The translations under genes and the position numbers were made by a program. A stretch of 64,000 nucleotides of DNA from an uncultured delta proteobacterium. Its GTDB lineage: Bacteria > Desulfobacterota > BSN033 > UBA1163. Numbering within the stretch: the first letter of the stretch is position 1; each line of letters begins with the position of its first letter. Under the pieces are notes generated by a model. That model was not told where the DNA came from, ran no database searches, and saw nothing but the letters and a program-made list of their open reading frames with translations. The stretch lies in contig CAWHBU010000003.1 of NCBI GenBank assembly GCA_963827685.1, forward strand, positions 1 through 64,000, in the 5' to 3' direction. Positions 1,648 through 18,929 of the stretch are shown here, one piece after another.

Positions 1648-1672
1648 TCCCTCGGAATTAACTCGTGGATAG

Positions 1673-1760
1673 TGTCCTTACGCGGACCCAGTGCTCGGTA
1701 GGGAAATCATAGGGGTGAAGAGCACGGTGAGGTCGCGCTTGGTCCACTCCCGGTATTTTC
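1673..1760 (-). pseudogene. IS256-family transposase remnant
   Basis: Minus strand reads YDFPTEHWVRVRT, resembling the IS256 FYDFPxEHWxxxRTTN motif; short and frameshifted. Confidence 0.45.
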
Positions 1761-2201
1761 CACCACATCATGGAGGGGCGGGAGGTCACATCTTCAAATG
1801 TTAATATATCTTTGGTGATCATCCGTACCTTTCAATCCTTTTATATTAAAACCGTGTCCGTGTCCGTTCTCCGTATAGGAAAAGAGGGGCGTTCATGCAG
1901 AGCATGCTTCACAGGGGGTTTGGGGTGGATGGTTCTTTGGGTATAAGGATTGGGAGCGAGAGGCAACTGTCGGAACAGATTAGGTCAAAATATCGACTTG
2001 GCTAGGCACGTCCCGCACGAACGTCCCTATGGTTCTATTTTGACTTTTTCTGAAAGTTTCGGTTGACCAATTTTCATAAAATAGATATATTCCAATCAGT
2101 AATCACCAGGGTGGCGGTGTAGATATTTCTTCATTTTCAGGGGAAAAAAGTCTACGGTCAGAAGGAAACTTTCATGAAATATAGGCAAAGTCAAGGATAA
2201 A

Positions 2202-3541
2202 CGGCCTGTTGCTCAAAAGCCCAATTCAAAAATATCTGAAAATTTAAGTTTCGATGAATGATAGCCGGGGGTAAATAGAACCAAATAGCACCATTTGGCC
2301 AATTTTAAAGCTCATCAGCTCCTTAAAATCTGAAAAAGACCTTATCTCCCTTGTCACAGCCCCTTTGATCTGCTCCATCATTACCGATGGACTTCTCTTT
2401 AGGTAAGATCCATACCTCAGCAAAACCTCAATGTTCTGGACAGCAGAGATCAGGTATTCCTGTATCTGCACCCGCCAAAGCCCTCTCCATCGTGCCCGGT
2501 CATATCCATACCGCGTCCCTCTGGCATAGGAACGCTCCATCAAGTGTTGCCTCATTTTGATATCCCGCTTCGCTTTGGCCGATCGACTCGCCTCTCGCAT
2601 CCTGTCTAGATCTTCCTGCCTCAGATGTCGCTTAATTGTCCGACCCGACTTGTTCTTGGTACACTGCTCTCTTAAGTCACATATCGCACAAATCTTCTTG
2701 GGCGCAGCGTAATCTCTACTTTGCCGACTCATATGTAATGACCTAGGCTTCAACCGATGCCCAGCTGGACAACGATAGGTGTCACTCTCCCGATCATACT
2801 CAAACCGCTCTTCCCCAAAGATATTCTGCTTTTCTGTACGCTTCAATGAGATTTCCCTCAAATCCGGCATGTGAGCCTCTACCCCTCTATCATGACACGC
2901 CAAAAAGTTCTCGATCGTCCCGTATTTGCTGTCGGCCACCACCGTATCCGCCTTGATCCCTGTATTTAAATGGTGGCTCTCTATCAGAGGAATCATCTCA
3001 TGCGCTTCATTGACATCTCCTGTTGTCGTTTCGATCGCCGTGATCACTTCACTCCGCTCATCCACTGCCCGATGAACCTGATAGGAGAGTTTGGGCTTGC
3101 CACGATTCACAATCGATGCATCCGGATCGGTCGTTGAAATGTATCGGCTGTTCTCTTTGACGTATCTCCTCGAAGAATCCGTGCTCTCGCTCTTTTCCTC
3201 CAATCGCGCTTCCAGCTTCTTGTAGCCCTCCTGGAGTTGAACCTTCAACGATCGCGTGTCGATCACGGAGTTGTTCGATGCATCCGCATCCACCAGGCTC
3301 GAATCCACAAAGATCTTTCTGCCGTCCACTAACCCCGCCTCCACACATTGCCACACCATTCGCTCAAAGAACCCCCTAAACGCTTCCACTCCCCACCGCG
3401 CCCTGGCTTTACTCAAAACACTGTGATCCGGCACCTCGCTGTCTATGTCGTACCCTAAAAACCATAGCCAGTCTAAACGCATGGGGATCGTCTCCATCAA
3501 CTCTCGTTCCGATCGAACATTGTAAAGAACTAATAGCAACA
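2202..3541 (-). mobile_element. IS1182-family element, 5'-truncated copy
   Basis: Near-identical to the element at 4705-6325 from the same end (cggcctgttgctcaaa); identity stops at 3541, so the transposase N-terminus and second TIR are missing. Confidence 0.9.
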
Positions 3542-3699
3542 GTGAGATTGGAAATATTGCCGAATCAATTCATTATATGGAATCTGCCAGGGTTGAATTT
3601 ATGCAAGTGTTCAATAAAAATCACTATGTTCTTAAAGAAATAGAAAAGCATCTAAAAGTCCTCAGAAAAGTCGATAGTAAAACCGGCGACCGAGTCTGA
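3541..3699 (+). pseudogene. 3' remnant of an unknown gene fused to the truncated IS
   Basis: Open frame SEIGNIAESIHYMESARVEFMQVFNKNHYVLKEIEKHL...RV* starts exactly at the IS truncation point. Confidence 0.4.
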
Positions 3700-3766
3700 A
3701 CAGGCAATGGGTTACCCCTAAGGATTTAGATTAATATGAGTCACCTAAAAAGGGTATATCTTACCT

Positions 3767-4513
3767 ATGGTGAGGGGAACACAAATTCAGTTGAAGTTTG
3801 AACAGTTGTATGACGCTTATGATAAATCACTTGATAATGCGATGCGTCTACATGGAGCTGGTGTTAACCTATTGCATGAATTTCCAGATATTTCGTTGGG
3901 ATTGTTCGAACTCGGACAGGAAGAACTTGGAAAATCCTATACCTGTTTAGCAACGATGGCCGTGAAAAAAGGCGACCCAGCGTTCTGGAAGATATTTTGG
4001 AAAGAATGGAAGCAACATAATATAAAAGCTCGTAGAGCTTTCCTCTATGAATGGCTTAGTCCCCTCCATCTTGGAGCATCATCGTCGGATGGGATGAAGT
4101 TTAACGGATTTCCTTTAAGAAGTGAAATAGTGCTTGAGAGGGAATTTTCATTTTACGTCAATTATGATGATAAACAACAGAAGTTTACTAGTCCATTTGA
4201 GAGCGTGAGCAGAGCAGAAACCTTTAATCGTGCATGTGCGTTATCAAGCCTTATTTACACTGCCCTTGCTGTTAAAGAAACTTTGGATGTTGGTGAAAAG
4301 GAAAAAAATTATAAAACCTTTTCAATTATTCCATTTCGTATCCTTACAAAGTTCACCTATCAACAAGATATGCCGGGGTTATATCGAAAATTTTCAAGCA
4401 TATCATCGTATCATAATTCATTGATTGTGAGGCTCAAGGAAGCGTTCGACAAAAATAGAAGTGAGCTAAATAGTATGATCACGAAAGTCAAGGGAGACTT
4501 TGAGGATGCATGA
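3767..4513 (+). CDS. AbiV-family abortive infection protein (putative)
   Basis: SLDNAMRL...A..L, ELGQEELGK and a downstream HxxK (HNIK) pattern typical of AbiV-like proteins; AT-rich. Confidence 0.7.
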   Translation: MVRGTQIQLKFEQLYDAYDKSLDNAMRLHGAGVNLLHEFPDISLGLFELGQEELGKSYTCLATMAVKKGDPAFWKIFWKEWKQHNIKARRAFLYEWLSPLHLGASSSDGMKFNGFPLRSEIVLEREFSFYVNYDDKQQKFTSPFESVSRAETFNRACALSSLIYTALAVKETLDVGEKEKNYKTFSIIPFRILTKFTYQQDMPGLYRKFSSISSYHNSLIVRLKEAFDKNRSELNSMITKVKGDFEDA

Positions 4514-4704
4514 GGCATCGAAATAGCAAGAAATAGCAATGGGGTCAGGTCTTGCAATCACACATTCGATTTTAAGAGCACAGATGGGGAGATGTAGCTT
4601 CTAAAACAACTTGGCGTCGGTTGGTCATTTTTAAAGAAGCAGCAAATGGGGATATACCTTATTATTATGAACCTTCTCGGTCCCACCGGCTTGTGAAGAG
4701 TGTA

Positions 4705-6325
4705 CGGCCTGTTGCTCAAAAGCCCAATTCAAAAATATCTGAAAATTTAAGTTTCGATGAATGATAGCCGGGGGTAAATAGAACCAAATAGCACCATTTG
4801 GCCAATTTTAAAGCTCATCAGCTCCTTAAAATCTGAAAAAGACCTTATCTCCCTTGTCACAGCCCCTTTGATCTGCTCCATCATTACCGATGGACTTCTC
4901 TTTAGGTAAGATCCATACCTCAGCAAAACCTCAATGTTCTGGACAGCAGAGATCAGGTATTCCTGTATCTGCACCCGCCAAAGCCCTCTCCATCGTGCCC
5001 GGTCATATCCATACCGCGTCCCTCTGGCATAGGAACGCTCCATCAAATGCTGCCTCACTTTGATATCCCGCTTCGCTTTGGCCGATCGACTCGCTTCTCG
5101 CATCCTGTCTAGATCTTCCTGCCTCAGATGTCGCTTAATTGTCCGACCTGATCTGTTTCTAGTACACTGCTCTCTTAAGTCACATGCTGCACAAATCTTC
5201 TTGGGTGCAGCGTAATCTCTACTTTGCCGACTCATATGTAATGATCTAGGCTTCAACCGATGCCCAGCCGGACAACGATAGGTGTCACTCTCCCGATCAT
5301 ACTCAAACCGCTCTTCCCCAAAGATATTCTGCTTTTCTGTACGCTTCAATGAAATTTCCCTCAAGTCCGGCATGTGGGCCTCTACTCCTCTATCATGACA
5401 GGCCAAAAAGTTCTCGATCGTCCCGTATTTGCTGTCGGCCACCACCGTATCCGCATTGATCCCTGTATTTAAACGGTGGCTCTCTATCAGAGGAATCATC
5501 TCATGCGCTTCATTGACATCTCCTGTTGTCGTCTCGATCGCCGTGATCACTTCACTCCGCTCATCCACGGCCCGATGTACCTGATAGGAGAGTTTGGGCT
5601 TGCCACGATTCACTATCGATGCATCCGGATCGGTCGTTGAAATGTATCGGCTGTTCTCTTTAACGTATCTCCTGGAGGAATCCGTGCTCTCGCTCTTTTC
5701 CTCTAATCGTGCTTCCAGCTTCTTGTAGCCCTCCTGGAGTTGAACCTTCAACGATCGCGTGTCGATCACGGAGTTGTTCGATGCATCCGCATCCACCAGG
5801 CTCGAATCCACAAAGATCTTTCTGCCGTCCACTAACCCCGCCTCCACACATTGCCACACCATTCGCTCAAAGAACCCCCTAAACGCTTCCACTCCCCACC
5901 GCGCCCTGGCTTTACTCAAAACACTGTGATCCGGCACCTCACTGTCTATGTCGTACCCTAAAAACCATAGCCAGTCTAAACGCATGGGGATCGTTTCCAT
6001 TAACTCTCGTTCCGATCGAACATTGTAAAGAACTAACAGCAACATCATCTTCAGGATTACAGGAGGGGGAATGGACACATTCCCGTTGCCCCCATAGGTG
6101 TCTCTGACCTCTGCATAGATGAAGTTAAAGTCAATCTGCTCTTGAATCCTTCTCAGAAGGTGTGTCCGGGGAATCCTTTGTTCCAGGTTCATATGATGAT
6201 AGAAGATCTTCGGCTGAATTCCTGTCTGTTGTCCCATCATGGCAATATCTCCATTCCAGATTTGTGCTGCCATGCTTATAGCTCGAATGTATAATCGTTG
6301 CAAGCATCATTTGGGCAACAGCCCG
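4705..6325 (-). mobile_element. Complete IS1182-family insertion sequence
   Basis: 16-bp TIRs cggcctgttgctcaaa / tttgggcaacagcccg with 2 mismatches; 4-bp TSD TGTA at 4701-4704 and 6326-6329; the empty site is visible at 14680-14720. Confidence 0.93.
4747..6240 (-). CDS. IS1182 DDE transposase
   Basis: DUF772-like PPPVILKMMLL...SERELME...WFLG...PDHS, DSSLVDA, ADSKYG, YRCPAG and C..C.LR.QC motifs. Confidence 0.92.
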   Translation of the reverse strand: MMGQQTGIQPKIFYHHMNLEQRIPRTHLLRRIQEQIDFNFIYAEVRDTYGGNGNVSIPPPVILKMMLLLVLYNVRSERELMETIPMRLDWLWFLGYDIDSEVPDHSVLSKARARWGVEAFRGFFERMVWQCVEAGLVDGRKIFVDSSLVDADASNNSVIDTRSLKVQLQEGYKKLEARLEEKSESTDSSRRYVKENSRYISTTDPDASIVNRGKPKLSYQVHRAVDERSEVITAIETTTGDVNEAHEMIPLIESHRLNTGINADTVVADSKYGTIENFLACHDRGVEAHMPDLREISLKRTEKQNIFGEERFEYDRESDTYRCPAGHRLKPRSLHMSRQSRDYAAPKKICAACDLREQCTRNRSGRTIKRHLRQEDLDRMREASRSAKAKRDIKVRQHLMERSYARGTRYGYDRARWRGLWRVQIQEYLISAVQNIEVLLRYGSYLKRSPSVMMEQIKGAVTREIRSFSDFKELMSFKIGQMVLFGSIYPRLSFIET

Positions 6326-6353
6326 TGTAGACGCGACACCGATACTGAGACAC

Positions 6354-6394
6354 CAAACAAAAAAAGGGAGCCGGCGGGCTCCCTTTTTTTGTTT
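6354..6394. terminator. Bidirectional intrinsic terminator (duplicate of the etfA terminator)
   Basis: A-tract, gggagcc-ggcg-ggctccc hairpin, T-tract; same hairpin as at 14733-14769. Confidence 0.8.
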
Positions 6395-6414
6395 GGTTAT
6401 TTAAGTTCTGCGAC

Positions 6415-6566
6415 TTATTTTGATTTTAGCTCCTTTAATTTCGCGGTCAGAGCAGGCAAGACTTCTTTATAATCCCCGACGATACCGAAGTGGGCTACGC
6501 TGAAGATATTAGCCTCCTTATCCTTATTGATAGCCACAATGACCTTTGATCCCAAACAGCCAGCGA
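6415..6566 (-). repeat. Orphan etfA 3'-end copy 1 (about 152 bp)
   Basis: Encodes [49 protein letters not shown], matching the C-terminus of etfA at 14790. Confidence 0.95.
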
Positions 6567-6575
6567 CCAACAAAA

Positions 6576-6637
6576 GGGTCAGGTCTTGCAATAACACAAT
6601 AGAAACCGAAGCAACTTTTTGCTCTCGAAATGCCTCC
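6576..6637 (+). repeat. Left 62-bp inverted repeat (GGGTCAGGTCTTGCAA-type)
   Basis: 58/62 identical to the reverse complement of 7948-8009; a shorter related copy starts at 4541. Confidence 0.9.
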
Positions 6638-6660
6638 GCGGGCAGGACTCGGTCACAGCT

Positions 6661-6838
6661 GGGTCAATAGGTCAATTCCTCATTATTGATAAGCCGTATA
6701 AGATTATGCTGAAAGTGGGTGATAGATCGGTGAGCCAGGAGCGAAGGAGATTAAGGGATTGGCTGAGCCACGATCGAAATGCTCAGAATTTATTCAAAGG
6801 GTTTCTTGGAAAATGTAACGATTGAAGAATTGACCCCC
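6661..6838 (+). pseudogene. Possible C-terminal remnant of a REP-associated (IS200-like, DnaA-C HTH) transposase between short inverted repeats
   Basis: Peptide VGDRSVSQERRRLRDWLSHDRNAQNLF ends next to gaagaattgacccc, an inverted partner of ggtcaattcctca at 6670. Confidence 0.4.
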
Positions 6839-7123
6839 TGATCCACCTGACTCCGTTGATCATCAGTTTCAGGTAGATGTAATAATTTTGAAGACCATTA
6901 AGAAACGTGTTTGACTTTTTGAACAAATTGGTATTGAATTATTCTCGGGAGTGTGAGCCAATAGGACAGCGGTTCTTGGGTTCATTGCATCTCAGGAAAG
7001 TCATTCGTCATGAGAAGTGTCAATTTTCACCTACGTCCCTCGGGGCCGTCATAACATTTTTTTCACTCAACGTATTTTCAGGCCCCCGTGTTACTCATGC
7101 GGGGACCAAAGAGGGGAAGCCAC

Positions 7124-7873
7124 ATGAGCCCGATCAGTTCTGAATCTATTTTCCATTTTACAAGTTCAATGCATAACCTCACCAACATCCTTAAAAATGA
7201 ATTTCAGCCGATGCTTAGTTTCGAAAGAATCGTTTTGGAAGATATAACGCTAGAAGGTTATTTCCCAATGGTTTGTTTTTGCAATATCCCCCTCTCTCAA
7301 ATAAGTAGGCATATTGATAAATATGGCCACTATGGAATAGGGATGTCATATGACTGGGTAAAAAAGACAGGGCTAAATCCTGTATTATATTTAAGAGCAG
7401 GTTCGATTTTATCTACTCATATCAAGAAGATCTATTTGCATCTTCTCCAGCAAGGGCACGACAGACATACAGACGAGGCTACAGCAGCACTATTGGATAT
7501 TCTAAGATATTTTAAAGCCTATAGAGGCAATTTTTACAGGAATGGGAGGCTAATTAAAAGAAATGTAAAATTTTATGACGAAAGGGAATTAAGATATGTT
7601 CCCAATCCAGCCCGGGTTGATGGCCTCTATTTTTTATCAGAAGATAAGTATAACGATCCAATTCAAAGGAACAAAGCCGATTCGAAGCTTGGAAAATTAA
7701 AGCTTAGATTTGAACCAAACGACATTAATTACATAATAATTGACAAACAGCATGAAATAACCGAAATGGTTAACGTATTGAATCATATCAAAAGACCGAA
7801 ATACAGTACAAAAACAGTGGAAATCTTAACCACTAAAATAATAACTTGCCGTCAAATACTAAGAGATTTTTAG
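7124..7873 (+). CDS. AbiGi-family protein
   Basis: IFHFT...ILK..F.P, PMVCFCNIPL...H...YG.YGIGM...W....GLNPVLY and FYDERELRYVP motifs. Confidence 0.85.
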   Translation: MSPISSESIFHFTSSMHNLTNILKNEFQPMLSFERIVLEDITLEGYFPMVCFCNIPLSQISRHIDKYGHYGIGMSYDWVKKTGLNPVLYLRAGSILSTHIKKIYLHLLQQGHDRHTDEATAALLDILRYFKAYRGNFYRNGRLIKRNVKFYDERELRYVPNPARVDGLYFLSEDKYNDPIQRNKADSKLGKLKLRFEPNDINYIIIDKQHEITEMVNVLNHIKRPKYSTKTVEILTTKIITCRQILRDF

Positions 7874-7947
7874 AAACGAATTTATCCACTAAGAATGTAT
7901 TTATAATAAAATGCAGACCTCCCGGTTACGAGCTTCATCAGTTTTGG

Positions 7948-8009
7948 GGAGCCATTTCGAGAGGAAAAAGTAGCTTCGGTTTCTATTGTGTTATTGCAAG
8001 ACCTGGCCC
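7948..8009 (-). repeat. Right 62-bp inverted repeat
   Basis: Reverse complement of 6576-6637 with 4 mismatches. Confidence 0.9.
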
Positions 8010-8081
8010 TGGCCTCGACTTTTAATAAGGAAAAGAAAAATTTAATTAACCCGAAAGTATTTTTTTGCCAAGAGAAAATTG

Positions 8082-9185
8082 ATGAAGATAGACCATTTCC
8101 AGGAAGAGGAAACTTACCTATTCTCCTCGCTTTTGAATAAACTCAAAGGACTATCTGAGAAGAATGTCAGCGTCACGACCAAGTGCCTCCTCGCCATTTT
8201 TTGGAAACTCCATGGAGAAAAACAATTTATCGACCCTCTTCTCAAGGATATCGAAACAGAAATCGTTGCTTATAACTCTGACCCCTCAAGGGAATCAAAC
8301 CGGATAAAAAAGGTGTTCGCATGCGCAGCTTACAAGGCTGCAGCAAAAAAGCCAAAATATGAAGATAAAATCCAAAATTATCTTTCATATGCAAGAGATT
8401 CAAAGGACTGGCTGGGGCAGCCAAGAATCGCATGTTGTCTCACCTTTTTGGGAAATGACCCAATAGCCGAAGAAGCGAGGGCTTATCTAAGGGAGAACTT
8501 CGGAACATGGCTATCAGAAGGCAAGCATGACTTTATCGCTGTCGCACTATTGGCCCTTAGAACAGAAATTTCAACTGGTGACTTACAGAGAATTCTGGAG
8601 CACGTTGAATCGGGCATCGCCAACCTACCCCTTGGCACAATCTCGATGTACCTTGCCGGATTTTCTCAGAGTAATGCGACCTTGCTAAACAAGGATGCCC
8701 TCGAAGACAGGCTGTACGAATCCATCCGAGATAGAGTTAAAGTAGCCCCTTCCCTTGAAGACGATGAGACAATCCTGGCTGCGACCGCATTATTCCTGGC
8801 AAAGTATCATAGAATCTCAGGGTATCTTGAGAAATATTCGGCGGAACTCAGGGAGACCCTTGCTCAGAAGGGCACTTTCGCTGAGGCCATAAAAAAAACC
8901 AAAACCCGAAATCTCTTGCTATGCATGACCCTTGTCGCCACCATAGGACTGATCTGCCTCATATTCTTCATTCCTTGGCTTGTTGAGTTCAAGGATAATC
9001 CTTCAGCATTTGGCCGACTTTTGCTGATGTTAAACACGAAAAAGGACTATGCACTCACTGTAGCTGCCGTGCTCGTCCTCTATATCCTCGTGTCATATTT
9101 CAAGAAGGGCGACCCTGTTTTGGGGATAGTGGATTATCTTCGTGAAAAAATCCCTGGGTTATTCAAGGGTGACAAGGAGAAATGA
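8082..9185 (+). CDS. Argonaute-associated alpha-helical protein with two C-terminal transmembrane segments (putative effector)
   Basis: Hydrophobic segments LLLCMTLVATIGLICLIFFIPWLV and YALTVAAVLVLYILVSYF; ATGA overlap with the Argonaute start. Confidence 0.75.
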   Translation: MKIDHFQEEETYLFSSLLNKLKGLSEKNVSVTTKCLLAIFWKLHGEKQFIDPLLKDIETEIVAYNSDPSRESNRIKKVFACAAYKAAAKKPKYEDKIQNYLSYARDSKDWLGQPRIACCLTFLGNDPIAEEARAYLRENFGTWLSEGKHDFIAVALLALRTEISTGDLQRILEHVESGIANLPLGTISMYLAGFSQSNATLLNKDALEDRLYESIRDRVKVAPSLEDDETILAATALFLAKYHRISGYLEKYSAELRETLAQKGTFAEAIKKTKTRNLLLCMTLVATIGLICLIFFIPWLVEFKDNPSAFGRLLLMLNTKKDYALTVAAVLVLYILVSYFKKGDPVLGIVDYLREKIPGLFKGDKEK

Positions 9186-11659
9186 AAATGGCAGATTTCA
9201 TAGCAATAAACGGGGCAAGACTTCCACGAGAAGAGATAGATTCAAGGGAAGTCTCTGTTATCACTATCCCCAATCTTTCAGTCGGCCATTCTGAATCCCT
9301 AAGAATCAAGCTCTTCAATGCTTGCGGCATGGTCAGCATCTATTACCGGAACGCGTTTTATTCTCTTCCGACGAAGGAAGAGCAAACGGACCCGGTTTCA
9401 ATACTTTCTGAAAGGATAAAAGATCTGGGAGAGATAGGCGAAGAAAAGAGGACCTTTTCAGAGCTGGATGATACTGTAAGGGAAAGGCTTCTGGTGGAAC
9501 TTTTCAGACATGCCGCCTCCAAAGCCACTTATTTCGGGATTTATGGACGGATATTTTTCAAGGCTGGTGATAATATTGACCCGTTTTTCACTCCTGCATT
9601 TGAGCTTTCCATAAGGGAATTTGAGAATTCATACGGTTATTTCATTAACCCAACTCTCTTGTCCATGGCAAACTGCACCCGGTTATTTGATAGGCTGCGC
9701 CAAGGAGATAGACTGATAAAGTTGTGCTCAAAAAGGTTCGAATGCAGCCTATTCCTGGAGGAAGGGAAATGCAAGTATTCTTACCCAACCTTTATCGGTC
9801 TTCTATCTGATTGTATCCCCAGAGATTCTAAAGATTTCGACAGTGAGCTGGATAACCTGGATTATGATCAATGCCCGGGGGTCGATGAGGAAGATTTTGG
9901 GATTTTGCACGTCAAAAGAACAAAAGATACCAAGATGGAGCATTCCTATCTAAGTTTTCTGGCATGCAGGGAGCTAACAGGGGCGGAGAGGCGTTCCTTC
10001 GGCATCGAAGATGAGTTCAGGAAGAAGCTGCTTCCTCCCTCGTCCGTCCGTTATCATCAGACGAAAACAATCATGGACAGTATATTCAAGAATGGTTCCA
10101 TTACCATCAATACTCTTGATTTTCCAGTAACGAGTGAGATAGGCAACTTTCATGAGCTCCCAACCGAAGGGGTCGCAATTGGGCTAGAAGAGCCCATGCT
10201 TCAGTTCGACCCAATCAACGAAGACCTCTGTTCAATAGAGCCATCGTCATTGTTTTTCAAGGGTGTCTTTGACGCATCATCGGCTTACAGACCTTTCAGC
10301 GCGATAAAGCCTTATGTGATCACCCCCAGCGACGCAAAACATAACCTGAACCAGGTTATTGACTGGCTGGCTGACGGAAAACAATACATTGATCGAGATG
10401 GAAGGCAGAAATTCGAAATTGTCGGCCTTAATCATAGATTCTCAAGATTCAACTGCAAGCTTGTATTGCCAAAGGAGGGCGATTACTTCTACGCTGATAC
10501 AGAAGAGAAGTTCATAGAGTCCGCTGATGCTATCGTGAACCAGTGGAACAACGACAACGAAAGGATTGTGCTTGTTGTACTCCCTGAGGCGGTCGAAGAA
10601 GATGATGAAGGGAAGCATGGGGAGTATGGGAGACCATTTTCCCTTTACTACCGGCTGAAAAAGATATTCGTTGAAAACGGTATCCCGTGCCAGATGATCG
10701 AGAAGGACACCTTTCCAAGAGTGGACAGGTATGTGTTGCAGAATCTTCTGGTGAACATCTACTCAAAAATGGGCGGAAGACCCTGGTCTTTGCATTCCCC
10801 GTTGAGTGATGTGAACGCCTTCATCGGGATAGGTTTTGGCTTGAACCCAAAGGCGACTGATAAGCATGTCTACATTGGAGTTGCCAATGTTTTTGACAGC
10901 CACGGAGAGTGGCTGGACATCTGCTCTGACCATAAGGACATAACAGAAGAGGAGAGGGATTCTTTCTATGGATATGAGGCATTCACTGAGAGATCGGTAA
11001 GCTACAAGTTATCAGAGGAGATGGCCCAGAAGATTGTTGAAGAATCACTCAAACGGTTCAAGGATACTAATCCAAACATCGGATTCCCAAGAAACATAGT
11101 CATCCACAAGAATGGTAATCTTTACGAATGCGAGATCAAGGGCATAATGGAAGCATTGAAAAAGCTTGAGGAAAGCGGGGCTGCATTCGAAAAGCTCGGA
11201 CTCTTGTCTATAATCCAGGATCATAATTACAAACTCTTCGGGAACGAAGATACTTTCGAGCGTGTAAGCAAGACGATAAAAGACAGGCCGCCCAAGAGGG
11301 GGGCAGTATATTTCCTTGATGAGAACGAAGCTCTTTTATGCACAACAGGCAAGTTCTATGGGGAGAGGCCCGGAGGAATGAAACTTATTTATAGTGGTCT
11401 TGGGACACCGAGGCCTCTTCTGCTTAGGAATCATCCGATTAATCCTGGGGATTACGGACTGCCGGAACTACAGCTATATTCCTTTGTTGAGTTGATAAAT
11501 CAGGTCTTTGGTCTTAGCAAGATACACTGGGGATCCTTGAGGACTGACATCCATCTGCCCGTTACCTCGATGTATTCAAGCAGGGTCGCTAAGGTCATCT
11601 CAAAAAGCGGGATAGAACGAATCCACAGGCCGGCAGCGAAAAGGCCTTGGTTTTTATGA
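9182..11659 (+). CDS. Long prokaryotic Argonaute (MID-PIWI), catalytically inactive
   Basis: MID YYRLKK..GIPCQMI..NLLVNIYSKMGGRPW; PIWI FIGIGFG, IVIHKNG, GTPRPL, QVFGLSKIHW, LPVTSMYS; ends in WFL; catalytic Asp positions are replaced. Confidence 0.92.
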   Translation: MKMADFIAINGARLPREEIDSREVSVITIPNLSVGHSESLRIKLFNACGMVSIYYRNAFYSLPTKEEQTDPVSILSERIKDLGEIGEEKRTFSELDDTVRERLLVELFRHAASKATYFGIYGRIFFKAGDNIDPFFTPAFELSIREFENSYGYFINPTLLSMANCTRLFDRLRQGDRLIKLCSKRFECSLFLEEGKCKYSYPTFIGLLSDCIPRDSKDFDSELDNLDYDQCPGVDEEDFGILHVKRTKDTKMEHSYLSFLACRELTGAERRSFGIEDEFRKKLLPPSSVRYHQTKTIMDSIFKNGSITINTLDFPVTSEIGNFHELPTEGVAIGLEEPMLQFDPINEDLCSIEPSSLFFKGVFDASSAYRPFSAIKPYVITPSDAKHNLNQVIDWLADGKQYIDRDGRQKFEIVGLNHRFSRFNCKLVLPKEGDYFYADTEEKFIESADAIVNQWNNDNERIVLVVLPEAVEEDDEGKHGEYGRPFSLYYRLKKIFVENGIPCQMIEKDTFPRVDRYVLQNLLVNIYSKMGGRPWSLHSPLSDVNAFIGIGFGLNPKATDKHVYIGVANVFDSHGEWLDICSDHKDITEEERDSFYGYEAFTERSVSYKLSEEMAQKIVEESLKRFKDTNPNIGFPRNIVIHKNGNLYECEIKGIMEALKKLEESGAAFEKLGLLSIIQDHNYKLFGNEDTFERVSKTIKDRPPKRGAVYFLDENEALLCTTGKFYGERPGGMKLIYSGLGTPRPLLLRNHPINPGDYGLPELQLYSFVELINQVFGLSKIHWGSLRTDIHLPVTSMYSSRVAKVISKSGIERIHRPAAKRPWFL

Positions 11660-11881
11660 TATGGCAGACAACGAATACCTTAATACCATCCTAGAACCGC
11701 ACAACCGGGACGCTGGTTCTAAAACAACTTGACACCGTTGGCAGACTTTAAAATAGGTGGCGACTGCTCAGAAATACCTTAAAATGTTTTACATCTCCTC
11801 AATCCTCCTCAATCATTAACGGAGGAATTTTAGCGGCATATAAGATTTTTTCTTTTCAGTCAATCGGTAAAAGAATTTCTC

Positions 11882-11917
11882 TTATTTTTCTTTGCTCTTT
11901 CTGACTATAGTTCTTTT
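11882..11917 (-). repeat. Orphan bamF 3'-end fragment
   Basis: Encodes KRTIVRKSKEK*, identical in protein to the bamF tail (19502-19534) but with synonymous changes. Confidence 0.75.
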
Positions 11918-11923
11918 TCCTTC

Positions 11924-12088
11924 TTATTTTGATAATAGCTCCTTCAATTTCGCGGTCAGAGCAGGCAAGACCTCTTTATAATCCCCGACAATACCGAAGT
12001 GGGCCACGTTGAAGATATTCGCCTCCTTATCCTTATTGATAGCCACAATGTATTTTGATCCCAAACAGCCAGCGATATGCGACACGGC
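11924..12088 (-). repeat. Orphan etfA 3'-end copy 2 (about 165 bp)
   Basis: Encodes [52 protein letters not shown]. Confidence 0.95.
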
Positions 12089-12176
12089 CGTTCCTTGACA
12101 ATGGGAAAAAAGGGATTACGTTTTTATTGAGATAACTTCAGGGGTTTTAGCCTGTGGGGATTAAAGGAGGAAAACC

Positions 12177-12590
12177 ATGGCAAATAAACATACGAAAATG
12201 AATCCAGTTGTTCACTTCGAGATGCCGGCGGAAGATAGAAAACGCATGGCAGATTTCTATACAAACGTGTTTGGTTGGAAGACACAGATGTTAGGCTCAG
12301 AAATGGGCGACTATGTTCTCGCCACCACAACGGAGTCCGACGAAACGGGTCGTCCAAAGAATCCAGGCGCCATCAATGGCGGCTTCTTCCCAAAGTCGGA
12401 CGATAAACCCGCCCAATATCCTTCCGTGGTGATTGCAGTCGAAGATATTAAGGAGCATATGAAGAAAGTGGAAAAAGCGGGTGGCAAGGTACTTGGAGAG
12501 CCGTGGGATATACCCGGTGTCGGATTGTACGTGTCTTTTTTTGACACGGAAGGCAACAGGGTGAGCATGCTCCAGCCGTCTCGGTCATAA
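12177..12590 (+). CDS. VOC/glyoxalase family protein
   Basis: NPVVHFEMPAED, FY..VFGW, GAINGG, FFDTEGNRV; AAGGAGG SD. Confidence 0.9.
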   Translation: MANKHTKMNPVVHFEMPAEDRKRMADFYTNVFGWKTQMLGSEMGDYVLATTTESDETGRPKNPGAINGGFFPKSDDKPAQYPSVVIAVEDIKEHMKKVEKAGGKVLGEPWDIPGVGLYVSFFDTEGNRVSMLQPSRS

Positions 12591-12615
12591 ACTGCTGAAA
12601 AAACGTGTCTGTGTC

Positions 12616-12635
12616 CCTGCCTACCGGCAGGCAGG
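12616..12635. repeat. Short palindromic repeat cctgcctaccggcaggcagg
   Basis: Identical copy at 33153-33172. Confidence 0.65.
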
Positions 12636-12846
12636 CGTGACGCGCGTTCGTAATTCTTCAACTCTAATACACAACCCCATGCACCACGTAGGGTGCATGA
12701 CTGTCCTGAACTTTAAATGGTTCAGGGCTCACCCTCCCCCGTCCAGGGGGAAAAAGGAATTGATGAAATATCCTCATGCTGGATGCATGTTAGACAACCT
12801 ATCCCCAGAAAATAGCTTAACGCAAAGCGCCGTGCCCACTGCAGGC

Positions 12847-12935
12847 CCCCGTTAGAAAGCTCCAGCATTTATGCCGGGGGATGGGGAAAATAGAAAGCAT
12901 CAGCTCATTATTGAGGACAGCCCTTTCTAACTGGG
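12847..12935. repeat. REP/MITE-like element ccccgttagaaag...ctttctaac(t/g)ggg
   Basis: Terminal inverted repeats; compact copy at 28633-28667. Confidence 0.6.
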
Positions 12936-13066
12936 TTTACTGCCGTGCGTTGCCTTTGGGCCTGCAAGTGCGAGTGCACCCGGGCATTTATTCTTGGGAG
13001 TCGATGGGTTGACTTCTGGCTTCTGATATGTAATACTGGGTATTACCTTCTATCGAGGGGCATTCC

Positions 13067-13342
13067 GTGAAGATTTCTGACTTCGAATGGGATGAGTGGA
13101 ACTCGCAGCATATTGAACTGGGACACGGTATTGAACCAGAAGAGGCCGAAGAGGTCTTTGCAGCTTCGCCCCTTTTCCGTAAGACAAGAAAGGGGCACTA
13201 TGTTGCTATGGGACCTACGCTCGCCGGGCGGTATTTGGTTGTAGTTTTTGAAATGAAGAGAAAAGGAATTGCTCGGGTGATAACCGGTTGGGACCTGGAC
13301 GACGCTGAAAAACGGTACTATCTTAAGAAAAGAGGGAGGTGA
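13067..13342 (+). CDS. BrnT-family toxin (type II TA)
   Basis: FEWDEWN..HI..GHGI..EEAEEVF, G.T.AGRYL.VVF, RVIT motifs. Confidence 0.88.
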   Translation: MKISDFEWDEWNSQHIELGHGIEPEEAEEVFAASPLFRKTRKGHYVAMGPTLAGRYLVVVFEMKRKGIARVITGWDLDDAEKRYYLKKRGR

Positions 13343-13348
13343 ATATCC

Positions 13349-13642
13349 ATGGAGAGAAAGAAGGCCGTTCTCAAAGAGGCTGGTGACGCACAATATTACG
13401 ATAAACACGGAGTTTTGAAAGAAATTATTGACGAACCGGTGGAAATGAGTTTAAAAACCGAACTACGCAGAAGTATCATTCTGGGTAAAAGGAGGAAAAA
13501 GCTAAAAAACATATCCATCAAGGTGGATCCGCTACAAATCCAGGCGATCAAGAAAGTTGCAGCGATGAAGTCCATCCCATATCAGATACTCATCCGTCAC
13601 TGGTTGTCTCAGAATCTCAAGGAAGAATTGCATATCGAATAA
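13349..13642 (+). CDS. BrnA/CopG-like antitoxin
   Basis: C-terminal ISIKVD...IK..A..K.IPYQ.LIR.WL ribbon-helix-helix pattern; directly downstream of the toxin. Confidence 0.82.
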   Translation: MERKKAVLKEAGDAQYYDKHGVLKEIIDEPVEMSLKTELRRSIILGKRRKKLKNISIKVDPLQIQAIKKVAAMKSIPYQILIRHWLSQNLKEELHIE

Positions 13643-13701
13643 CCCATGTATCCCTGATGGAGAAGCCTCCCTTTCCCCCAGGGTTCTAGCAAATCTGCGG
13701 C

Positions 13702-13888
13702 TTATGCTGATTTTAGCTCCTTGAGTTTCGCGGTCGGAGCAGGTAAGACTTCTTTATAATCCCCGACGATACCGAAGTGGGCTACGTTGAAGATATTCGC
13801 CTCCTTATCCTTATTGATAGCCACAATGACCTTTGATCCCAAACAGCCAGCGATATGCGACATGGCGCCAGAGAGAGCTACGGCTATG
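13702..13888 (-). repeat. Orphan etfA 3'-end copy 3 (about 187 bp)
   Basis: Encodes [61 protein letters not shown]. Confidence 0.95.
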
Positions 13889-13976
13889 ATGGCATCAATA
13901 AAAATAATCCCGTCCTTATAGGAGATGGTGACGTCCACTTTGGATATGCCTTCTCTGTACTTTCTGCTGAATAGCG

Positions 13977-14005
13977 TTGACAATGTTATAAAATGTGACT
14001 ATAAT
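13977..14005 (+). promoter_or_regulatory. Consensus sigma70 promoter of the RelE/Phd module (probably leaderless)
   Basis: TTGACA-17 bp-TATAAT; an ATG lies 7 nt downstream at 14013. Confidence 0.75.
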
Positions 14006-14012
14006 TATGGTT

Positions 14013-14330
14013 ATGGGTATTCCCTATAAATTAGTTTATGCTCCTCAAGTGAAACAGCATTCGAAGGCAATTGAGCCAAAATATTTTTCATTGATTCGTA
14101 CTAAAATTGAGACTCAATTGAGGCTTGAACCGACTGTCGAAACAAGAAACCGAAAACCCTTAAAGCAACAAGCTGACTTTGAAGGGGAATGGGAACTTCG
14201 TTTTGGCCCTGAAAATCGATTTCGAGTATTTTACGCAATAGATATAGAGAACCATGAGGTACAAATTCTGGCTATTGGTGTTAAAAAAGGAACCCGCCTT
14301 TTTATCGGTGGAGAGGAGGTTGAATTATGA
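14013..14330 (+). CDS. RelE/ParE-family toxin
   Basis: RNRKPL...WELRFG...RFRVFY......V.ILAIGVK. Confidence 0.85.
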   Translation: MGIPYKLVYAPQVKQHSKAIEPKYFSLIRTKIETQLRLEPTVETRNRKPLKQQADFEGEWELRFGPENRFRVFYAIDIENHEVQILAIGVKKGTRLFIGGEEVEL

Positions 14331-14632
14331 AGATTGCATCCGTTGCAGACGTTAAAGCAAAATTGAGTGCCTATTTGAGAGGATCTCAGGAAGGACCAGT
14401 CGTTGTCACCAGGAATGGAAAACCAGTGGGGGTTCTGCTGTCCGTGGAAGACGAAGAAGAATTGGAGCGGCTATTACTTGCTTATTCACCCCGTTTGCGA
14501 AAGATTCTTTTAGCCGCCCGAAATCAGATTCAATCCACTGGAGGCATCTCACACAGGGAATTCTGGAAAGAAATGGAAAAGAAAGTATCAATAGATCGGA
14601 AGAAAAGAATTTCTGGGATGAAAGCCGCTTAA
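14327..14632 (+). CDS. Phd/YefM-family antitoxin
   Basis: SVADVKAKLSAYL....GPVVVTRNGKPVGVL; ATGA overlap with the toxin. Confidence 0.9.
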   Translation: MKIASVADVKAKLSAYLRGSQEGPVVVTRNGKPVGVLLSVEDEEELERLLLAYSPRLRKILLAARNQIQSTGGISHREFWKEMEKKVSIDRKKRISGMKAA

Positions 14633-14732
14633 TTGAGTTACCTATCTTCGTCCCACCTTCAGACCCCAATCTGGTCAGCCGGTCCCACCGGCTTGTGAAC
14701 AGTGTAGACGCGACACCGATACTGAGACATCA

Positions 14733-14769
14733 AACAAAAAAGGGAGCCGGCGGGCTCCCTTTTTTGTTT
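14733..14769. terminator. Bidirectional terminator between etfA and the TA module
   Basis: GC hairpin gggagcc/ggctccc flanked by A- and T-tracts. Confidence 0.85.
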
Positions 14770-14789
14770 AGTTATTTAAGTTCCGTGAC

Positions 14790-15791
14790 TTATTTTGACA
14801 GTAGCTCCTTGAATTTCGCGGTCAGGGCAGGCAAGACTTCTTTATAATCCCCGACGATACCGAAGTGGGCCACGTTGAAGATATTCGCCTCCTTATCCTT
14901 ATTGATAGCCACAATGTATTTCGATCCCAAACAGCCAGCGATATGCGACATGGCGCCAGAGAGAGCTACGGCTATGTATAGTTTAGGGCTGACCACCTTT
15001 CCGCTCTGGCCCACCTGGAGCCTCGTCGGCGCCCAACCCTCGTCACAGGCAGGCCTGGTAGCACCAACAGCGCCACCCAGAACGTTAGCGAGCTCCCGGA
15101 GCATCCCGAAATTCTGAGCACCACCTATGCCACGCCCACCGCTGACGACGACCTCAGCGTCTTCGAGCTTCACCCCTTCCACTTCCTCTCTTATGCGATC
15201 GATAACCCTGACTTTAAGCGCCGAAGGATCGATCTTGCCTTCTACAGGGATAACCTGACCTTGCCGAGAGTCATTGCGCTCTGCTGGCGGCACTATTTTC
15301 GGTCTTAGAGTAGCCATTTGAGGCCGGGCAGACTTTGATACCATCGTGGCGTGGGCGTTACCACCAAAGACAGGCCTGGTCGAGACCAGGAGCTTGGTCG
15401 CCGGGTCAACGGATAACGCCAGGCAGTCCATCGCGAGCCCACCCCCTAAGCGACCATTGAGTCGCGGAGCCAAATCACAACCGATATCCGTATGGCCAAG
15501 AAGCATAATGGAAGGAAGCACTTTCTTGCAAAGGTCAGCCGCTACCTGAGTGTAGGCATCGGAGTTATAATCATCCAGGAGACTGTCTTCAGCAACATAG
15601 ACATTGTCAGCCCCATAGGCGATTGCCTCCTTACCCAGGCCGCCTGTTTTGCTACCCATCAACAGGGTACTTAAGTCCTCGCCCAGTTCACTGGCGAGCT
15701 TTCTTCCGATTCCAAGGAGTTCTATAGTGATTGGCGCAAGTTTCCCTTCGGCGATCTCACCGCAAACCAAAACACCTTTATGACTATCCAT
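14790..15791 (-). CDS. etfA: Electron transfer flavoprotein alpha subunit
   Basis: LEDAEVVVSGGRG, GATRP, QVGQSGKVVSPKLYIA, IVAINKD motifs. Confidence 0.95.
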   Translation of the reverse strand: MDSHKGVLVCGEIAEGKLAPITIELLGIGRKLASELGEDLSTLLMGSKTGGLGKEAIAYGADNVYVAEDSLLDDYNSDAYTQVAADLCKKVLPSIMLLGHTDIGCDLAPRLNGRLGGGLAMDCLALSVDPATKLLVSTRPVFGGNAHATMVSKSARPQMATLRPKIVPPAERNDSRQGQVIPVEGKIDPSALKVRVIDRIREEVEGVKLEDAEVVVSGGRGIGGAQNFGMLRELANVLGGAVGATRPACDEGWAPTRLQVGQSGKVVSPKLYIAVALSGAMSHIAGCLGSKYIVAINKDKEANIFNVAHFGIVGDYKEVLPALTAKFKELLSK

Positions 15792-15877
15792 TGAATATCC
15801 TCCGTTCATTTCTCTCATCTGTGTAATCTGCCATAATCTGTGTAATCAGAGATTTCGGGACTTTTTCCGAAATCTCA

Positions 15878-16672
15878 TTATATCAGCTTAGCAAGCTTTA
15901 AGGCGAGATTGACGGCAGCTTCACTTGGAGTACCCCCGGCAACTATCTCGCACTCGGTCTTTCGGGTCGGCACAGAGAGACCGGCGATCTCAATATGGGC
16001 CTTCGCCTTGTCCAGCTGCGAGGACTCAGCCCCAATATCCTGCGCCTTCCAGATCGGAATCTGCTTTTTGCGAGCAAGCATGAGGCCCACTCCACCGGGA
16101 AGACGAGGCAGACCGATCTCACTGCTGACCGTAACCAGGCTTGGCATAGGAGCTTCCAGTACTTCATAGCCATCCTTCACTATCCTTTTTACCCTGAGTT
16201 TCTTGTCCACTGCCTGGATATCGCAGGCGAGGGTCACGACAGGGATGCCAAGTATTTCGGCCAGAATGGAGCCCACCTGACCAGCGCCCCAGTCAGCGGC
16301 CTGTCGGCCACACAGAATTAGGTCATACCCGCCTATTTTCTGGATCGCTTTCCCCAAGACATAAGCAGTACCAAAGCTATCCAAGTTTTCGAAGGCTGCG
16401 TCCTCGAGAACAAATCCTTCGTCGGCCCCCATCGAGATGGTGTGCTTTATCACATCAGAAGCTTTCCCTGACCCCATGCTGATCACGGTTATTTTCCCTT
16501 TGTGCTTATCTTTGAGCCGGCATGCTGCCTCAACGGCTCGTTCATCATACACGCTGATCACAGGCGGCACTCCGGGGGGAGGAATCACCTTTTTCGTTTC
16601 GGGGTCAATCTTGAATTTGGCCGGTGGTATCTCGGGGTCGGGTACTTGTTTAACACAGACGATGGTATTCAT
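15878..16672 (-). CDS. etfB: Electron transfer flavoprotein beta subunit
   Basis: IVCVKQVPD, DERAVEAA, MGAD, DLILCGRQAAD..GQVG motifs. Confidence 0.95.
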   Translation of the reverse strand: MNTIVCVKQVPDPEIPPAKFKIDPETKKVIPPPGVPPVISVYDERAVEAACRLKDKHKGKITVISMGSGKASDVIKHTISMGADEGFVLEDAAFENLDSFGTAYVLGKAIQKIGGYDLILCGRQAADWGAGQVGSILAEILGIPVVTLACDIQAVDKKLRVKRIVKDGYEVLEAPMPSLVTVSSEIGLPRLPGGVGLMLARKKQIPIWKAQDIGAESSQLDKAKAHIEIAGLSVPTRKTECEIVAGGTPSEAAVNLALKLAKLI

Positions 16673-16764
16673 ATGACTCCCTTCCTAATTAGAGAGCTCT
16701 GAAAAACTAATTTCGCTCTCTGATTCTAATCTGTGTAATCGGCTCAGAATCTGTGTAATCTCAA

Positions 16765-18780
16765 TTAAGATTGCTTCATTGCTGCTTCAACCAGTTCAAC
16801 AAGGTCTCTTGCCTTCAACGAGTCCTTCATCTGTTTATGTTCGATGCTCTCCTCGAACATCTGTAGACAATAAGGGCAGGCAGTCACTACGGTCTCAGCC
16901 CCGGTCTTGAGAACGTCTTCAATACGCATTTGATTAATCTTTGTTGTACCGGGTTGTTCTTCTATCCACATGTGTCCGCCGCCGCCGCCGCAGCAAAAGC
17001 TCGTGTTTCGCGAGCGTCCCATTTCCTCAAGCTTTGTCTTGGGGATAGCTTGCAATATCCGGCGCGGCTCCAGATATACTCCATTATAACGGCCTAAATA
17101 GCAAGGGTCGTGATAGGTGAGTATAGAATCCAGCTTATTGGTAAGTTTCAATTTGCCCTGCCTGACTAAATCAGCAATCAGCTGGGTATAGTGAACTACC
17201 TTGAAATCGCCGCCGTATCGAGGGTACTCATTCTTAATGGTATGATAGCAATGGGGACAGGAGGTGATAATTTCTTTAATGTGGTGGCTTTTGAAAATTT
17301 CAATATTTTGCTCCGCCATGACCTGGAACTGGAACTCATAGCCTGCTCTTCGTGCCGGGTCACCACAGCAAGTCTCGACTTCGCCTAATACCGCGAAATC
17401 GACTCCCGCAGCCTTCAGCACCCTCGTCATGGAAAGAGTCGCTTCGACATTACGCTCAACCAGAGCCCCGGTGCAACCTACCCAGAATAGGGTATTCGCG
17501 TTACCCCCTTCAGCCAATAGCTTCAGTTCCAGACCATTTGTCCAGTCGCCCCTCAACCTCAGCGACTGGACTCCAGCCCATGGGTGTCCTCTGGACTGCA
17601 TATTTCTGAGCATCAGCTGGGCAGTTTCCGGCATCTTACTTTGCGCCAGCACCAGGTTGCGTCTGAGGTCAATGATCTTAACAATGTGTTCCACATAGAC
17701 GGGACATGTCTCCTGGCAGGCAGCGCACGTGGTGCATGCCCAGATTTCGGCTTCACTTGGCGCTTCACCAGCCAAGGTCGGAGCGCTGTCGGATTGATTC
17801 GCCTGGTTGTTCGCTGCTTTGAGCATGTGGACTTTGAGGTCCTGCACGACTTTCCTGGGCGAAAGGGGTTTGCCTGTCGCCCACGCCGGGCAGGCATCCT
17901 GACAGCGACCGCAGTTGGTGCATGCGTCCAAGTCAAGAAGCTGCTTCCAGGTGAAATCCTTGATGGCTCCCACCCCAAGAGTCTCGGCATTTTCAATATC
18001 GATAGGGGCAGGAGATCCTACGGGTCCCAGGGAGCGGAAAAAGACATTCAACGGGGATACGACGATATGCTGTAATTTGGAAAAGACCAGAGCGGAATAA
18101 ATGATGGCACCGAGGACGAGCACCGAATGGAACCACCATAAAGACCAGTGCCAGAACAAAAGCGAGTTCTGGCTCATGCCGGCAAAGGCTTTGGCCAAGA
18201 CAAATCCGCCCACGGACCATACTGCCCAGTCAGGGTGAAGGGTTAGTTCGGTAGCTGCCTGCCGTAGCCCTTCAACCATGAAACCGGTAATCAGCATCCC
18301 TGCAATCAACGCCATGCCGATGCCATCGTCGAGTATGGTATTCAGCCTCTTGGGTTTCGAGACGTAACGGCGGTAGGCAGCCATGAGTATCCCAATAAGA
18401 ATCAGGAGGCCGCCAATATTAACGATGAGTTTGAACCACAGGTAGGGAGTACCGCTTATATGACCAAGGATGTAATGGGTGACAGCATCAACAGCCGAAG
18501 CCAAAAGGAGTATGACAAAACCCCAGAAGATAATCAGGTGCATCATCCCTGGGTAGGGATCGCGAAGAAAGCGCCGGTGGGCTAAAACATCCACAACGGT
18601 GGTGCGGATGAAAACCCGTATTCTTTTGCCTATGTTCTTAGAGCAGCCATCTGGCTTGCCCAGGTGCCATAGCTTATAGCGCCCGTAGATATTGAACACC
18701 CAGAAAGCTAAAGCGATAGCTGCCAATAGGTAAATCACGTAACCGTACGGTATATTCCAGAATACTTCCCGGGATGGCAA
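16765..18780 (-). CDS. Membrane-bound FeS oxidoreductase (NarI-like TM domain, 2x4Fe-4S and CCG domains; ETF:menaquinone oxidoreductase-like)
   Basis: TM helices carrying His residues, CTNCGRCQDACP, CTTCAACQETCP, two CCG domains; adjacent to etfBA. Confidence 0.85.
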   Translation of the reverse strand: MPSREVFWNIPYGYVIYLLAAIALAFWVFNIYGRYKLWHLGKPDGCSKNIGKRIRVFIRTTVVDVLAHRRFLRDPYPGMMHLIIFWGFVILLLASAVDAVTHYILGHISGTPYLWFKLIVNIGGLLILIGILMAAYRRYVSKPKRLNTILDDGIGMALIAGMLITGFMVEGLRQAATELTLHPDWAVWSVGGFVLAKAFAGMSQNSLLFWHWSLWWFHSVLVLGAIIYSALVFSKLQHIVVSPLNVFFRSLGPVGSPAPIDIENAETLGVGAIKDFTWKQLLDLDACTNCGRCQDACPAWATGKPLSPRKVVQDLKVHMLKAANNQANQSDSAPTLAGEAPSEAEIWACTTCAACQETCPVYVEHIVKIIDLRRNLVLAQSKMPETAQLMLRNMQSRGHPWAGVQSLRLRGDWTNGLELKLLAEGGNANTLFWVGCTGALVERNVEATLSMTRVLKAAGVDFAVLGEVETCCGDPARRAGYEFQFQVMAEQNIEIFKSHHIKEIITSCPHCYHTIKNEYPRYGGDFKVVHYTQLIADLVRQGKLKLTNKLDSILTYHDPCYLGRYNGVYLEPRRILQAIPKTKLEEMGRSRNTSFCCGGGGGHMWIEEQPGTTKINQMRIEDVLKTGAETVVTACPYCLQMFEESIEHKQMKDSLKARDLVELVEAAMKQS

Positions 18781-18820
18781 AAGCGATCCTCCCCTTTGCT
18801 TCAGACCAACTTGAGATCGT

Positions 18821-18890
18821 TTACAACGACCCGCATAAGCAGCTGGAAAAGCGCCAGCTTTTGCCGTCCGCCTTTATGCGGATGTTATGC
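18821..18890 (-). other. attC-like integron recombination site
   Basis: Minus strand GCATAAC-atccgcataaaggcggacggcaaaagc-tggc-gcttttccagctgcttatgcgggtc-GTTGTAA: a 70-bp imperfect palindrome with AAC/GTT cores, 40 bp after the DUF3795 stop. Confidence 0.6.
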
Positions 18891-18929
18891 TGTTATAGAT
18901 GAAATAGCTCTTGCCTTGCCAATAAAAAA

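Follow-up and report, generated by a model that had tools for sequence, protein, structure and literature searches.

Orphan 3' ends of etfA partition an array of defence and other cargo behind the intact gene in an uncultured delta proteobacterium, with comparable tails behind further genes and in relatives

The locus considered here lies in the first 64 kb (the window) of contig C3 (1.24 Mb) of an uncultured delta proteobacterium, whose source genome (G000) is a 5.2-Mb bin of 14 contigs with a completeness of 94.5% and an estimated contamination of 8%; G-, C- and L-numbers denote genomes, contigs of G000 and individual loci, respectively. At its centre stands etfA, the final gene of an operon made up of an FeS (iron-sulphur)-oxidoreductase gene, etfB and etfA, behind which three orphan etfA 3' ends follow on the same strand at 92-95% identity, each with a stop codon (Table 1). 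No etfA-like DNA beyond the intact gene and these three tails was found elsewhere in the 5.2-Mb genome. An earlier note, made from the letters alone, had reported the three copies with their lengths, positions, stops and alleles, together with a duplication of the terminator and flank, all of which was confirmed: the flank of tail C matches that of intact etfA at 105 of 110 bases, the terminator included. The gap in the duplicated flank, left unnamed at that time, is an IS1182 element (one of 14 full-length copies across the genome) whose insertion is later than the flank duplication. The intact etfA of G009 is followed by a flank of the same type, and tail C is probably the oldest resident end.

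The tails delimit three cassettes, with further cargo behind tail C. The families first assigned to this cargo stand, with weak matches for the RelE/ParE-like toxin (Pfam, E 3e-4), for the BrnT-like protein (34.3 bits, slightly below the 34.5 cut-off) and for the CopG-like antitoxin (below its cut-off). A perfect sigma-70 consensus is located at 13977-14005 in cassette 1, and a TTGACA hexamer lies 6 bp past the tail-B junction in cassette 2. Every cargo gene of the window was confirmed to lie on the strand opposite etfA, which in general is a tendency, the cargo being opposite in strand to its parent gene in 35 of the 47 distinct flanks with a following open reading frame (ORF). No tRNA or tmRNA was found in the window, nor any Rfam match within its positions 1-20000; the separators are gene tails, attC sites not having been searched with a dedicated model. 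The left end of the window (positions 1-1661), which holds an HxlR regulator and a 4Fe-4S gene, has a counterpart of 95% identity in G009, in a block about 6 kb behind etfA; the variable region accordingly extends beyond the end of the contig.

Table 1. Coordinates of the features of the etfA array (window positions) and of the response-regulator unit
Feature	Position	Strand	Remarks
Intact etfA	14790-15818	-	ORF; Pfam ETF and ETF_alpha
Downstream flank of intact etfA	14680-14789	-	Symmetric terminator-like hairpin at 14732-14769
Cassette 1	13889-14679	+	RelE/ParE-like toxin 13995-14330; Phd antitoxin 14327-14632
Orphan tail A	13702-13888	-	Last 187 bp of etfA; KVIV/LKSA allele
Cassette 2	12089-13701	+	VOC/glyoxalase 12177-12590; BrnT-like 13067-13342; CopG-like antitoxin 13349-13642
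Orphan tail B	11924-12088	-	Last 165 bp of etfA; KYIV/LLSK allele
Cassette 3	6567-11923	+	AbiGi 7088-7873; 368-aa protein 8079-9185; 825-aa prokaryotic Argonaute (pAgo) 9182-11659
Inverted repeats enclosing AbiGi	6575-8010		63-bp arms 6575-6637 and 7948-8010, 94% complementary; TIRYT-type end motif
Orphan tail C	6415-6566	-	Last 152 bp of etfA; KVIV/LKSK allele; most distal
Tail-C flank and terminator, proximal part	6326-6414	-	
IS1182 within tail-C flank	4705-6325	-	TGTA target duplication
Tail-C flank, distal part	4678-4704	-	
HEPN AbiV, cargo behind tail C	3767-4513	+	
Response-regulator unit, ~290 bp	G000 C2:443699-446106 (L084); G010 in L117/L118		

The earlier view, centred on etfA and defence genes, proved too narrow, as the process is genome-wide and family-wide and its cargo includes metabolic and transport genes. 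When all ORFs of G000 were scanned for partial copies (orphan 3' ends on the same strand, up to 60 kb downstream, with subsequent curation), orphan tails whose starts lie 49-187 bp ahead of the stop end were found behind 14 unrelated genes: etfA, comM/YifB, pgi, dapF and TonB, the genes of a pyridoxal phosphate decarboxylase, a sigma-54 response regulator, an Nqo3-like FeS subunit, an RNB nuclease, an enoyl-CoA hydratase, a tyrosine recombinase, a DUF3047 protein and a metal-resistance protein, and one unassigned gene. Among the 3233 ORFs of at least 600 nt, the class of downstream, same-strand orphan tails held 18 matches at 12 genes (one later dropped as a repeat), compared with none on the opposite strand, three middle pieces, three tails upstream and six heads upstream at five genes. 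Two candidates, C3:525687 and C1:217272, proved to be tandem or heptamer repeats and are not counted among the tails. The cargo between gene and tail ranges from a 0.6-kb HicA pair or a single TIR gene up to 17 kb of metabolic genes, and at comM/YifB (C3:450682-497957; L081, L087) at least four orphan tails are spread over 46 kb, separated by toxin-antitoxin-like pairs, a SixA-like phosphatase and radical-SAM blocks. It may be remarked that comM, a competence gene, thus serves as a docking site and is itself unbroken. By eye, no att-like motif was common to 22 junctions of G000, and replication-strand bias gave no signal, positive GC skew on the own strand being found for 7 of the 14 parent genes versus 1350 of 2027 background ORFs.

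In the relatives, the DNA behind etfA varies in nearly every genome of the genus and etfA itself is conserved, so that the variation in cargo and tail number that had been expected of related genomes was indeed seen. G002, G004 (two), G006, G010 and G026 carry orphan etfA tails, and 42 metagenome loci contributed 19 orphan rows; the total of 28 orphan rows, reduced to 23 distinct tails by setting aside four duplicate contigs and one split piece, falls into 17 junction classes of 45-235 bp. The whole-gene search scored three candidates per genome, and its tail counts are therefore lower bounds. Stacks behind comM are present in several family members (L091-L110) with junctions at 43-249 bp, and all tails measure at most 250 bp apart from one internally deleted comM type of about 480 bp in G028. 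Response-regulator tails were also found in G010 (three) and a pgi fragment in G008, and the dapF locus had a match in 1 of 54 genomes; the mid-operon gene etfB matched once in each of 34 genomes out of 55, with no extra tail. The response-regulator locus is built of a ~290-bp unit (~175 bp of non-coding DNA, an 83-bp response-regulator tail and a short flank) present in two to three copies per genome with differing cargo. Among the neighbouring proteins are products of CBASS (cyclic-oligonucleotide-based antiphage signalling), AbiEi/AbiEii, PIN, HepT, restriction-modification, TIR and reverse transcriptase-primase genes, as well as transporters and enzymes. Individual examples behind etfA ends include a CBASS operon (L080:3135-6345) and a 1681-aa primase/reverse-transcriptase fusion (L056:28-5070). 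Separately, a four-helix 23S-IVP-family gene lies between etfB and etfA in L051, L054 and L061 (by Pfam on L051), and is lacking in L046.

The tails are allelic variants, and their junctions recur. Of 34 differences between the tails and the etfA of the window, 29 occur in the intact etfA of relatives, and on this comparison the tails are natural alleles. The tail-B junction (j165) is shared by the window, L058, L063 and L080 with differing cargo and two flank types, the tail-A junction (j187/188) is followed by flank A in the window and by flank B in L078, and at comM the junction j49 was found in three genomes and j135 in two; the junctions are evidently inherited and reshuffled between assemblies. 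The suggestion that tails would let cassettes swap or excise is hence borne out for swapping, given the reshuffled combinations of junction and flank, and not for excision, as neither tail-to-tail deletion joints nor circles were among the joints listed from four runs, a search of contigs, which drop rare variants. As regards order, a DUF5674-pair gene is the first gene behind an intact or contig-cut etfA in six loci and the first behind an orphan tail in three; likewise, the arrangement comM-SixA-tail (G034) compares with comM-new gene-tail-SixA-tail (G002), and comM-radical SAM (G005) with comM-PIN pair-tail-radical SAM (G010). The same cassettes move from a proximal to a distal position, consistent with displacement, and the earlier notion of an accretion hotspot in which the resident tail is displaced is supported.

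The earlier note saw no integrase in the window, and no tyrosine recombinase was found within 768 kb on its contig. A tyrosine-recombinase profile, which did find an unseen control gene, had no match in 90 loci (917 kb) plus 16 loci (240 kb), amounting to 1.16 Mb of fetched loci; an integrase next to an etfA tail in relatives, proposed at the outset as a thing to look for, was not found in these loci. No integrase was present among the neighbouring proteins (94 of the 129 listed were scanned), and serine recombinases, sought in G000 and in those 94 proteins, gave no resolvase-family match in G000 (94.5% complete). The fixed crossover of integrase islands is not seen at etfA, with its 17 junction classes, or at comM; the exception is the response-regulator locus, where one fixed 83-bp junction is used five times and no recombinase was found near the ~290-bp units. 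G000 carries genes for ComEC, DprA and ComM/YifB and may, to judge from these genes, be competent.

The lack of a local recombinase, the many junctions, their re-use and reshuffling, and the order of displacement are matters of observation, and the explanation we prefer, and regard as fairly probable, is an additive capture of genes through host homologous recombination in two stages, without a dedicated recombinase. In a rare first stage, incoming DNA from a relative would pair along etfA, the intact gene acting as a long homology anchor, and its foreign far end would join the resident strand illegitimately 45-250 bp ahead of the stop codon, whereby the gene would be rebuilt and the resident end with its terminator shifted downstream as an orphan tail. 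These first joints would be products of homology-facilitated illegitimate recombination (HFIR), in which the illegitimate joint has a short microhomology. In a more frequent second stage, some of which is visible in the data, a cassette with two arms to one gene, a long body in front and a short tail behind, would enter a relative as a linear donor by two crossovers, body with body and then tail with the resident 3' end, and would land directly behind the gene with no deletion of resident cargo; crossovers between tails could then swap or drop cassettes, and later deletions may trim some tails. Alternatively, the cassette may enter as a circle excised between tails, as PMC2935791 proposes for rhs. 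Natural transformation would be the likeliest route of the DNA, and ComM helps to integrate heterologous DNA, according to PMC6158740. Since no dedicated recombinase would be required, many genes with variable DNA next to their 3' end could seed a stack. A bolder extension, which we put forward tentatively and judge rather doubtful, is that orphan tails are more than scars, being working, self-propagating second homology arms of a general enzyme-free cassette system with arms below about 250 bp, in which a single illegitimate joint would make the 3' end of a conserved gene a permanent and additive docking site. This would be a main growth route of defence islands and other integrase-free hotspots, with over a dozen such loci in the present genome, comM among them.

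A near-clonal pair of loci lends itself to inspection of a joint. The intact etfA of L075, a locus identical to L067 over 4550 bp, is 99.9% identical in its end to the orphan 192-bp tail of L073 and the next 2.4 kb, and in L073 this tail abuts the central part of an AbiEi gene, with three bases shared at the joint. The two differ by only two substitutions, both within 42 bp of the junction and at synonymous third positions, which fits a hybrid tail that would be donor near the joint and resident beyond it.

Several points weigh against capture by host recombination as outlined above. The hybrid-tail signal comes from this one pair, and L073 stops short of its own intact etfA; over nine intact/orphan pairs, the junction-proximal half held 37 differences versus 51.5 expected and the distal half 56 versus 57.8, a difference short of significance (p 0.09). 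At 12 of 27 junctions a homologue of the cargo extended as far as the joint, and these had 0-3 shared bases, the donors being other lineages; homology arms of 45-100 bp are also on the short side for RecA. One and the same cargo end is found with tails of unequal length (212/75, 149/70 and, at comM, 135/120), so part of the spread in tail length is due to later deletion, and the response-regulator locus uses a single fixed junction repeatedly, as would be expected of a site-specific system too; homology-anchored insertion, as first proposed, is supported, and the unequal 5' boundaries offered for it are weaker evidence than was claimed, on account of these trimmed tails and this fixed 83-bp junction. 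Some tails lie far from their parent or on another contig (1.36 Mb in G010). Lastly, an ORF-blind repeat scan of G000 returned 10 head-upstream pairs beside 18 tail-downstream pairs, several of the former being paralogues or repeats; orphan 5' ends do exist, and the 3' polarity is consequently a bias and no rule.

Among the rival explanations, a TIRYT/RAYT-type HUH transposase, cutting single-stranded DNA beside its terminal repeats, could have made the first joints, which homologous recombination then spread. G000 encodes two such transposases, tail C adjoins a TIRYT-type end, and G[AT]CCC, a TIRYT end read in reverse, occurs within 25 nt of 7 of the 17 etfA junction classes versus a 3.9% background, the motif having been picked post hoc. 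The comM junctions count against it, the 5-mer being present at 1 of 19 orphan junctions and the literature consensus at none of the 19 (two rows of split intact genes being excluded), as does the rarity, judged by eye, of the TIRYT-end motif at other G000 loci; moreover, TIRYT repeats may merely crowd the etfA island, and we consider the proposal improbable. Of equally slight probability is the idea that the tail is the leading edge of incoming DNA, in which a donor fragment starting within the etfA end would be anchored by homology downstream and joined upstream illegitimately, less than about 250 bp being too short for pairing. It accounts for the length ceiling and for distant tails, and at comM the G010 tail and the block downstream are 96.7% identical to G005 against about 91% for the gene body; it does not predict that junction and upstream cargo end are co-inherited while the downstream flank changes, and the finding that the same cassettes shift from proximal to distal agrees with displacement.

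Strongly disfavoured, and given little chance, is the view that the tails are attachment scars of integrative elements since deprived of their integrase, with unequal lengths arising from later deletion. The differing tail lengths at one cargo end and the fivefold use of the 83-bp junction are what it would predict, and 2 of the 14 loci lie within a 56-kb stretch (G000 C4:148021-204253) that runs between 48-bp exact direct repeats beside an integrase; against this, each of 14 genes would need its own, completely lost integrase, none was found in 1.16 Mb of loci, etfA has its 17 junction classes, and many cassettes are small (0.6-3 kb), their genes intact and their tails nearly identical (0 of 72 positions differing in L055). 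That the resident gene end was duplicated locally and then decayed, or that strain variants were assembled into a chimera, is the least probable of all, since, in spite of the 8% estimated contamination of the bin and the lack of a contig among four runs spanning the whole array, the tail differences are shared natural alleles, the tail-A and tail-B junctions recur in independent assemblies, a contig of run X5 (13848-14371) crosses junction A, run X1 (possibly the source sample) covers 30 of 30 bins and 42 of 73 contigs at 99% or above, and other assemblies hold multi-tail stacks on single contigs.

Three further routes were rejected: an RNA or cDNA intermediate, because junction B retains a -35-like hexamer and the cargo occurs in both orientations; circles from random fragments, as the starts of all 17 etfA classes fall inside 235 bp (a probability of about 2e-12 if starts were uniform, assuming no selective loss of long repeats); and non-homologous end joining, Ku not being found in G000.

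Comparison with known systems places the etfA array as one that works like the rhs and type VI secretion system (T6SS) arrays and is a member of neither, nor of the integrase-driven islands. In the rhs C-terminal displacement arrays (Jackson et al. 2009, PMC2935791), an intact gene is likewise followed by displaced 3' pieces of variable core length without an integrase, as is found at etfA, and homologous excision and insertion via a circle was proposed. The payload there is the variable C-terminal toxin tip, whereas here it consists of unrelated downstream genes behind a conserved housekeeping-gene piece, at 14 genes in one genome; nor does etfA have the exchangeable non-homologous tip and immunity gene of rhs and contact-dependent inhibition polymorphic toxins, its parent being EtfA and its tails alleles of 92-95% identity. 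HFIR and the V. cholerae T6SS immunity arrays (PMC5361080, PMC2884548) share the one-sided homology anchor, which here is the conserved etfA beside variable downstream DNA, and the successive shift of older modules towards the rear, and differ in that the resident effector is replaced there, whereas here the anchor piece is duplicated and the resident cargo kept. For integrase-free hotspots of horizontal gene transfer (45% of hotspots encode an integrase), Oliveira et al. 2017 (PMC5635113) describe double crossover at flanking core genes; the reliance on host recombination only, the core gene anchor and the tie to natural transformation are alike, but two different flanking genes are involved there and the hotspot content is replaced. 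Insertion is additive here because the tail arm makes both arms the same gene. Tandem integrative elements bring along the 3' end of the gene they target (examples are tRNA and tmRNA islands, and e14 and phage 21 at E. coli icd) and resemble the array in that the target is rebuilt, the old end displaced and the elements stacked in tandem; unlike it, they use their own integrase and one crossover, neither of which is seen at etfA or comM. Two further papers (PMC3119063, PMC3784515) are only loosely relevant.

The literature searched, which omits most subscription journals, held no description of stacks of housekeeping-gene tails; what is new here are the many loci in one genome, the length ceiling, the re-used junctions and the before/after states. 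A double crossover at two flanks accounts for replacement and not for accumulation, whereas tail arms would give additive growth with host enzymes only. The orphan tails mark cassette boundaries and arrival order, and may thus be used to mine defence genes and to date islands.

Within cassette 3, the gene of the 825-aa pAgo overlaps that of the 368-aa protein, which has a hydrophobic C-terminus and no family match or usable database match. The first catalytic position of the PIWI domain is Gly in an alignment read by eye, the pAgo is apparently inactive, and the two are a candidate pair of pAgo and membrane effector, perhaps akin to the Long-B pAgos, which bioRxiv 2023.03.09.531850 describes as full-length, catalytically inactive and encoded beside a trans-membrane effector. 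The AbiGi gene of the same cassette is enclosed by inverted repeats carrying the GGGG[AT][CG]A[CG]-type end motif that typifies TIRtrons (consensus from PMC6006769), each arm differing from the consensus by one or two bases, and an identical motif flanks two Y1 transposase genes of G000. No Y1 transposase lies between the repeats, AbiGi being there instead, and the window has no Y1_Tnp match; the element is probably a non-autonomous Y1-transposase element carrying a defence gene. A further site alongside it was noted at 4542-4569. Positions 6682-6825 encode a short remnant that recurs in several islands and that may resemble the TIRYT C-terminus.

Genome-wide, 5 of the 14 full-length IS1182 copies adjoin the CAGGTC/GACCTG motif of TIRYT-type ends, and 4-bp target duplications accompany most of them. 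An imperfect inverted repeat of about 160 bp is present in about 20 copies (window 2039-2201; C2:13-40 kb; C8:38-65 kb), in a single orientation within each cluster, between accessory genes and frequently beside IS copies.

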